Assembly (NCBI RefSeq): GCF_055900595.2
Contig: NZ_CM148325.1
Strand: one strand, 5' to 3'
DNA: 64,000 bases
Positions 32,672-32,817 of this stretch are shown here, piece after piece. The position numbers and the translations under genes are program-made. The notes beneath the pieces were generated by a model. The model was not told the origin of the DNA and searched no databases. It saw only the letters and a program-made list of their open reading frames with translations. Position 1 is the first letter of the stretch. Each line of letters opens with the position of its first letter.

Positions 32672-32687
32672 CTGTCGATACGTACAG
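32672..32687. promoter_or_regulatory. LexA (SOS) box upstream of ydjM
   Basis: CTGTcgatacgtACAG fits CTGT-N8-ACAG; a weaker second box follows at ~32684..32706. Confidence 0.65.
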
Positions 32688-32817
32688 TATAGGATTTTTA
32701 TACAGTGCACGGAAGTAGTGACGGTGTAACTCTTTATCTTAAATTGACGATTAATCCGCCAGTTGAATGCAAATTCAGATAAAGAACCAGGGGCAGCGTG
32801 ATAACTGCCCTTGGTTA

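Follow-up and report, generated by a model that had tools for sequence, protein, structure and literature searches.

Can a genuine regulatory site be recognised from raw sequence, and how would it act on the gene that it precedes? The spacer upstream of ydjM raises this question in a stretch of 64,000 nucleotides (the window, by which we mean the whole of the DNA analysed), for which the original prediction had proposed a canonical SOS box directly upstream of ydjM and a second, weaker element overlapping it just upstream. The tandem LexA operator of ydjM is already known, as the gene has been listed in the LexA regulon since 2000 and its boxes are found in databases and reviews, and it serves here as a positive control. 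What our analysis adds is mildly new and comparative only: an 18-bp layout of the two boxes that is fixed across the Enterobacteriaceae, and evidence that the inner half of the weaker box may double as a promoter element.

The ydjM locus and its two LexA boxes

The region holding the LexA boxes corresponds to hxpB (yniC)–ydjM–tcyP (ydjN) of E. coli, with hxpB and tcyP flanking ydjM, and a 1.5-kb query found matches in 5,423 of 5,426 complete E. coli genomes. This 1.5-kb stretch is 99.9% identical to strain Z0117EC0005 and ~97.5% identical to most other E. coli; genomes that are at least 99% identical here number only 13-15 among ~5,420 E. coli. An intact 632-aa ORF (37864-39762, minus strand) lies between thrS and yniD and is annotated as the type III effector EspL1 in the closest genome, while in K-12 this interval presumably holds the arpB pseudogene only. 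Together, the intact ORF and the ~97.5% identity to most E. coli suggest that the window represents a less common E. coli lineage.

The features around the ydjM start, all read on the minus strand, are as follows.

32065-32655, minus strand: ydjM coding sequence, the regulated gene (196 aa, stop codon included in the coordinates; from the ORF list and the PGAP annotation of the 99.9% identical genome)
32663-32667, minus strand: GTGAG, probable Shine-Dalgarno region, in which the ORF list has an in-frame alternative GTG start at 32667
32670-32689, minus strand: proximal (stronger) LexA box, TACTGTACGTATCGACAGTT in gene orientation, with the core CTGT-N8-ACAG at 32672-32687
32688-32707, minus strand: distal (weaker) LexA box, CACTGTATAAAAATCCTATA in gene orientation, with the consensus 5' half CACTGTAT and the non-consensus 3' half CCTATA
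32718-32732, minus strand: conserved upstream block GAGTTACACCGTCAC (~90% or more column conservation in 80 orthologs)
32791-32810, minus strand: terminator-like hairpin (GGGCAG...CTGCCC) directly after hxpB, from a terminator scan (stem of 7 bp with 5 GC pairs, followed by a T-rich tail)

The ydjM reading frame starts with the ATG at 32655 and ends with its stop codon at 32065, and the product matches Pfam PF04307 (YdjM inner membrane protein, E=7e-36) and NCBIfam NF008651 (metal-dependent hydrolase, E=7.6e-113). The GTG at 32667 is not conserved as a start codon in orthologs, which have ATTAGG, TCTGGG or similar at this place; the ATG and its context TTTTATCATG are conserved among them. Both LexA boxes lie within the 162-bp spacer between hxpB and ydjM. 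The hairpin after hxpB, ~80 nt upstream of the operator, would insulate ydjM from hxpB read-through.

In gene orientation, the sequence upstream of ydjM reads ...GTG CACTGTATAAAAATCCTA-TA-CTGTACGTATCGACAGTT TAGTGAGTTTTATC ATG. The proximal box is a full palindrome with a perfect CTGT-N8-ACAG, and the predicted CTGTCGATACGTACAG is found on the plus strand at exactly 32672-32687. The distance of 17 nt originally given between this site and the ydjM start is correct as a coordinate difference, with 16 nt lying between the 16-mer core and the ATG. The weaker upstream element is likewise real, occupying 32688-32707 and ranking fourth in the window, but only one of its halves fits the consensus, reading CTGT along the gene and ACAG (32702-32705) on the plus strand; the other half is CCTA. 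Overlap between the two elements holds for the 20-mers, which have 2 nt (TA) in common at a centre spacing of 18 bp, but not for the 16-mers, which are separated by a 2-nt gap. The 20-mers end 14 nt (proximal) and 32 nt (distal) from the ATG, and the full double operator spans 38 bp, 32670-32707, so that the predicted range of 32672-32706 was in the right place but left out 2 nt at one end and 1 nt at the other.

We asked how unusual such sites are in the window. The bare pattern CTGT-N8-ACAG occurs once where 0.57 occurrences are expected and is found at least once in 42 of 100 shuffled sequences, and with one mismatch there are 23 matches against 17.5 expected. Since these counts are not significant on their own, we turned to a symmetric position weight matrix (PWM) built from 17 E. 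coli LexA boxes (PMC3009722, Table 4). The ydjM boxes are not in that table, and cho was removed from the training set because it lies within this window. The four best of 63,981 positions were these.

19568-19587: rank 1, the known cho box CACTGGATAGATAACCAGCA, 19.2 bits
32670-32689: rank 2, the ydjM proximal box, 15.4 bits
1433-1452: rank 3, a site inside nudG, 14.8 bits
32688-32707: rank 4, the ydjM distal box, 12.8 bits

Both ydjM elements thus stand among the four best LexA-like sites of the window, beside the known cho box, as the original prediction would have it. First-order Markov sequences, simulated 200 times, contained 0.045 sites per 64 kb scoring as well as the proximal box and 0.315 scoring as well as the distal one; for a given site, a partner of distal quality centred 16-22 bp away would arise by chance with a probability of ~7e-5. 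The full 20-bp proximal site is significant by PWM, and its score lies inside the spread of the training set (polB 13.8 bits, dinB 15.6 bits), with the distal box meeting the consensus more weakly. A Lewis-style heterology index (HI) computed from the same matrix gave 9.9 for the proximal and 10.0 for the distal box, close to the published values of 9.0 for E. coli ydjM and of 9.12 and 12.85 for the Salmonella ydjM boxes, the sequence of which differs slightly from that of the E. coli boxes.

Two further sites came to light in this ranking. The cho gene (ydjQ; start at 19554, minus strand) carries CACTGGATAGATAACCAGCA 13 nt upstream, identical to the published cho SOS box, and represents a second known SOS operator 13 kb from ydjM. 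Inside the nudG coding sequence, the LexA-like TGCTGTTTATTTTTTCAGGA at 1433-1452 has the form CTG-N10-CAG; by chance, 64 kb should contain fewer than ~0.1 sites of this kind. A literature search for nudG together with LexA found no paper linking the two, and the site could be a chance occurrence or a weak intragenic LexA site.

Published data place ydjM among the LexA-regulated SOS genes and bear out the SOS induction anticipated for this operator. In E. coli treated with AZT, ydjM was induced 2.5-fold, with an 8.6-fold dependence on LexA cleavage (lexA3 comparison). Under sub-MIC ciprofloxacin its log2 fold change was −0.04, 1.59, 1.53, 2.61, 2.60 and 1.81 at 1, 10, 25, 50, 75 and 120 min, and in Salmonella nalidixic acid induced it 2.11-fold. 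Across the published data, induction is modest, at 2- to 6-fold. Two SOS boxes have been tabulated 14 and 32 nt from the ATG of Salmonella ydjM, and our scan of two Salmonella ydjM loci returned boxes at exactly these distances. The sequence of the distal box is given for b1728 at -52 (PMC4576408, Table 2), and LexA also regulates a gene of the YdjM family in Staphylococcus aureus. The suspicion that the boxes form a tandem was correct: PMC4951493 credits Fernández de Henestrosa et al. (2000) with the experimental report of tandem LexA sites at ydjM of E. coli.

Conservation of the operator and its leader

To follow the operator beyond E. coli, we compared 80 ydjM orthologs from ~25 genera of Enterobacteriaceae (85–99% protein identity), collected in one scan of species-representative genomes. 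A box of the proximal type is present in 80/80 orthologs, with 11.7–21.7 bits and at 13–23 nt from the ATG, and a distal box at exactly 18 bp centre spacing is the second-best site in 78/80. None of the 80 departs from CTG and CAG in the proximal box, variation being confined to the central positions and to CTGT/CTGG, and each of the 12 minority alleles there also occurs at the same position in real LexA boxes (12/12). Among Escherichia the two boxes show essentially no variation (O157:H7, E. coli E69 and E. albertii have them unchanged), and a few flanking bases outside them differ between the window and most strains. One strain, E. coli NIPH17_0036 (NZ_AP024561.1, 96501-96732), has a 7-bp deletion between the boxes, corresponding to 32692-32698 of the window (CACTGTATAA-------ATACTGTACG), so that the distal 3' half is lost and the spacing altered; of 5,421 genomes, no other falls in the 90-95% identity band.

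The conserved leader extends beyond the boxes to the whole ~95 nt upstream of the ATG, with the sequence further upstream not alignable, so that conservation alone is not specific evidence for LexA. Indeed, motif information and ortholog conservation are at best weakly correlated (Spearman rho 0.42, p 0.07, at the proximal box and rho 0.13 at the distal one), as expected when an entire leader is conserved, and conservation by itself cannot assign the distal element to LexA. Distal conservation departs from the LexA motif because the non-consensus half is invariant: the columns CCTATACTG are unchanged in 80/80 orthologs. Moreover, Citrobacter amalonaticus (AGATGGATAAAAAACCTATA) and Intestinirhabdus alba (AGCCTGGCAAAAATCCTATA) have lost the distal CTGT and retained AAAAANCCTATACTG. 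The invariance of CCTATA even where the distal CTGT is missing argues for a constraint on it other than distal LexA binding, for which the -10 element of a promoter is the most likely source, judging from the alignment.

Upstream of the boxes, the conserved GAGTTACACCGTCAC block may serve as a -35 region or be bound by another regulator. Most genera have GTGACAAA in front of it, which gives GTGAC-N13-GTCAC, and the left arm is lost in Escherichia. A CRP-like or CpxR-like reading of the block, made by eye, was dropped on account of the half-sites, which are poor and are missing from Escherichia; the TisB paper does not have ydjM among the CpxR-dependent genes that it lists.

Promoter elements and alternative readings

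How would LexA bound at this place act on transcription? A strict sigma-70 scan of 32500-32900 returned no promoter, and in a relaxed, ortholog-anchored sigma-70 tally no candidate rose above ~8/12. A search of the literature and of the supplements of two genome-wide studies (PMC10301672 and PMC7815308) found no mapped ydjM transcription start. Two conserved -10 candidates emerged from the alignment.

32686-32691, minus strand: candidate -10 TATACT across the box junction (5/6 against TATAAT, with A2 and T6 present)
32697-32702, minus strand: alternative candidate -10 TATAAA in the distal box, paired with CCGTCA over a 16-bp spacer

TATACT is invariant in 81/81 sequences, including the two species without distal CTGT, and its -35 match is at best 2/6. 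TATAAA with CCGTCA is the best conserved -35/-10 pairing, with a mean of 7.7/12 across the 81 sequences. The distal CCTATA probably doubles as a -10 promoter element through TATACT, as far as the aligned sequences indicate. As both candidates lie inside the 38-bp operator, and the boxes cover all the conserved -10-like hexamers, two bound LexA dimers would be expected to cover the -10 and the start whichever hexamer is used.

We conclude that 32670-32707 is very probably the SOS operator of ydjM, consisting of two abutting LexA boxes that would repress by promoter occlusion. Its sites, scores, conservation and geometry were computed here; its LexA dependence and its induction by damage are taken from the literature. 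Each box would be able to bind one LexA dimer. In undamaged cells, LexA on the operator would cover the -10-like hexamers and the likely start and would thereby exclude RNA polymerase, and upon DNA damage RecA-stimulated self-cleavage of LexA would free the promoter, so that ydjM would be transcribed and YdjM, an inner-membrane putative metal-dependent hydrolase, be made. The weak inner half-site and the fixed spacing further suggest that the two dimers bind cooperatively, the strong site helping to fill the weak one.

Other readings of the same stretch were weighed against this one. That the palindrome arose by chance and has no SOS role might be argued from the 0.57 bare matches expected per window, but it is effectively refuted by the score of the full site, the paired second site, the conservation across ~25 genera and the published LexA-dependent induction. 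It is also conceivable, if unlikely, that only the proximal box is a working operator and that the distal one has been kept chiefly for its part in the core promoter (-10 and spacer), with CTGTAT adding little or nothing to repression. The distal CCTATA would then owe its invariance in 80/80 orthologs to something other than a consensus that it lacks, the retention of AAAAANCCTATACTG in both species without CTGT and the lack of correlation between distal conservation and motif information would be in keeping with this, and the E. coli strain whose 7-bp deletion removes the distal arrangement would fit as well. Against this, the half-site (T/C)ACTGTA(T/C) recurs at exactly 18 bp in 78/80 species, the distal score is comparable to that of the polB training box, tandem binding is cited as experimentally reported, and recN box 3 and ColE1 box 2 share the design, with the degenerate half turned toward the strong box.

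A different role for LexA, as a roadblock downstream of a promoter CTGAAT-17-ATTAAT (-10 at 32755-32750) that would put the boxes at ~+36 to +73, is improbable. The proposal draws on genomic SELEX with sigma-70 RNA polymerase, which assigned CTGAAA-17-ATTAAT to the yniC-ydjM spacer ~50 nt further upstream, and in the window CTGAAT-17-ATTAAT scores 7/12, no worse than the other candidates. However, the SELEX promoter was chosen by its fit to the consensus inside a fragment and is not a mapped start, and the gene next upstream is a different one in most genera, where it ends ~90 nt short of the ATG. We rate this reading lower since the promoter stretch is not conserved outside Escherichia, whereas the operator and the adjoining block are.

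Comparison with other tandem LexA operators

The proposed promoter occlusion by two LexA dimers at ydjM invites comparison with other multiple-box operators. The operators of lexA, recN and ColE1 cea were each matched at 100% identity to sequence records and scored with the same matrix. For lexA and recN, the matching sequence is found immediately upstream of the gene itself. The ColE1 sequence (plasmid NC_001371.1, with no downstream gene in its gene table) is one that we take to be cea. The centre spacings compare as follows.

lexA: 21 bp
recN boxes 1–2: 22 bp
recN boxes 2–3: 18 bp
ColE1 cea: 15 bp
ydjM: 18 bp

The LexA boxes of ydjM (b1728) in E. coli K-12, for which Fernández de Henestrosa et al. 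(2000) and Courcelle et al. (2001) are cited, represent the same locus and sequence, with the same neighbours and a distal box identical to the listed one, and with no functional difference. The lexA operator resembles that of ydjM in having two adjacent LexA boxes just upstream of the start codon, but it differs in its 21-bp spacing and in consisting of two full palindromes (20.9 and 18.1 bits) that do not overlap.

The closest likeness in geometry is to recN boxes 2-3, in which a stronger and a weaker box with a terminal TA in common are likewise set 18 bp apart, the degenerate half of the weak one pointing toward the strong one; in Salmonella the recN boxes at 8 and 26 nt have the same spacing as those of ydjM. 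Unlike ydjM, recN adds to this pair a third and very strong box, 22 bp further upstream, and scores are higher at recN (25.1, 18.1 and 14.0 bits) than at ydjM (15.5 and 13.2 bits in this comparison).

Like ydjM, ColE1 cea combines a strong and a weak box whose ends overlap and has a degenerate inner half in the weak one, and at such colicin double SOS boxes two LexA dimers are bound and repression is tight. By contrast, its boxes are stronger (22.1 and 15.0 bits) and their spacing is 15 bp instead of 18 bp, which would place the two LexA dimers at a different helical phase from those at ydjM. The ydjM operator has the overlapping strong and weak boxes of the colicin type and lacks its 15-bp spacing.

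The degenerate half of the weaker box thus faces the stronger box in ydjM, recN box 3 and ColE1 box 2 alike. It is possible, though less likely than not, that CCTATA (TATACT with the first proximal bases) is at once a -10 element and, for a second dimer bound cooperatively, the degenerate inner half-site, in which case the 18-bp layout would amount to a class of LexA operator of its own that has yet to be formalised. If so, such a class of a strong box and an inner-degenerate weak box at 18 bp would be common to recN boxes 2-3 and to ydjM across ~25 genera, and would differ from the 15-bp colicin and the 21-bp lexA arrangements. By analogy, the inner-facing degenerate half suggests that the ydjM operator works like the strong-plus-weak, end-overlapping design of the colicin operators, in the geometry of recN boxes 2–3.
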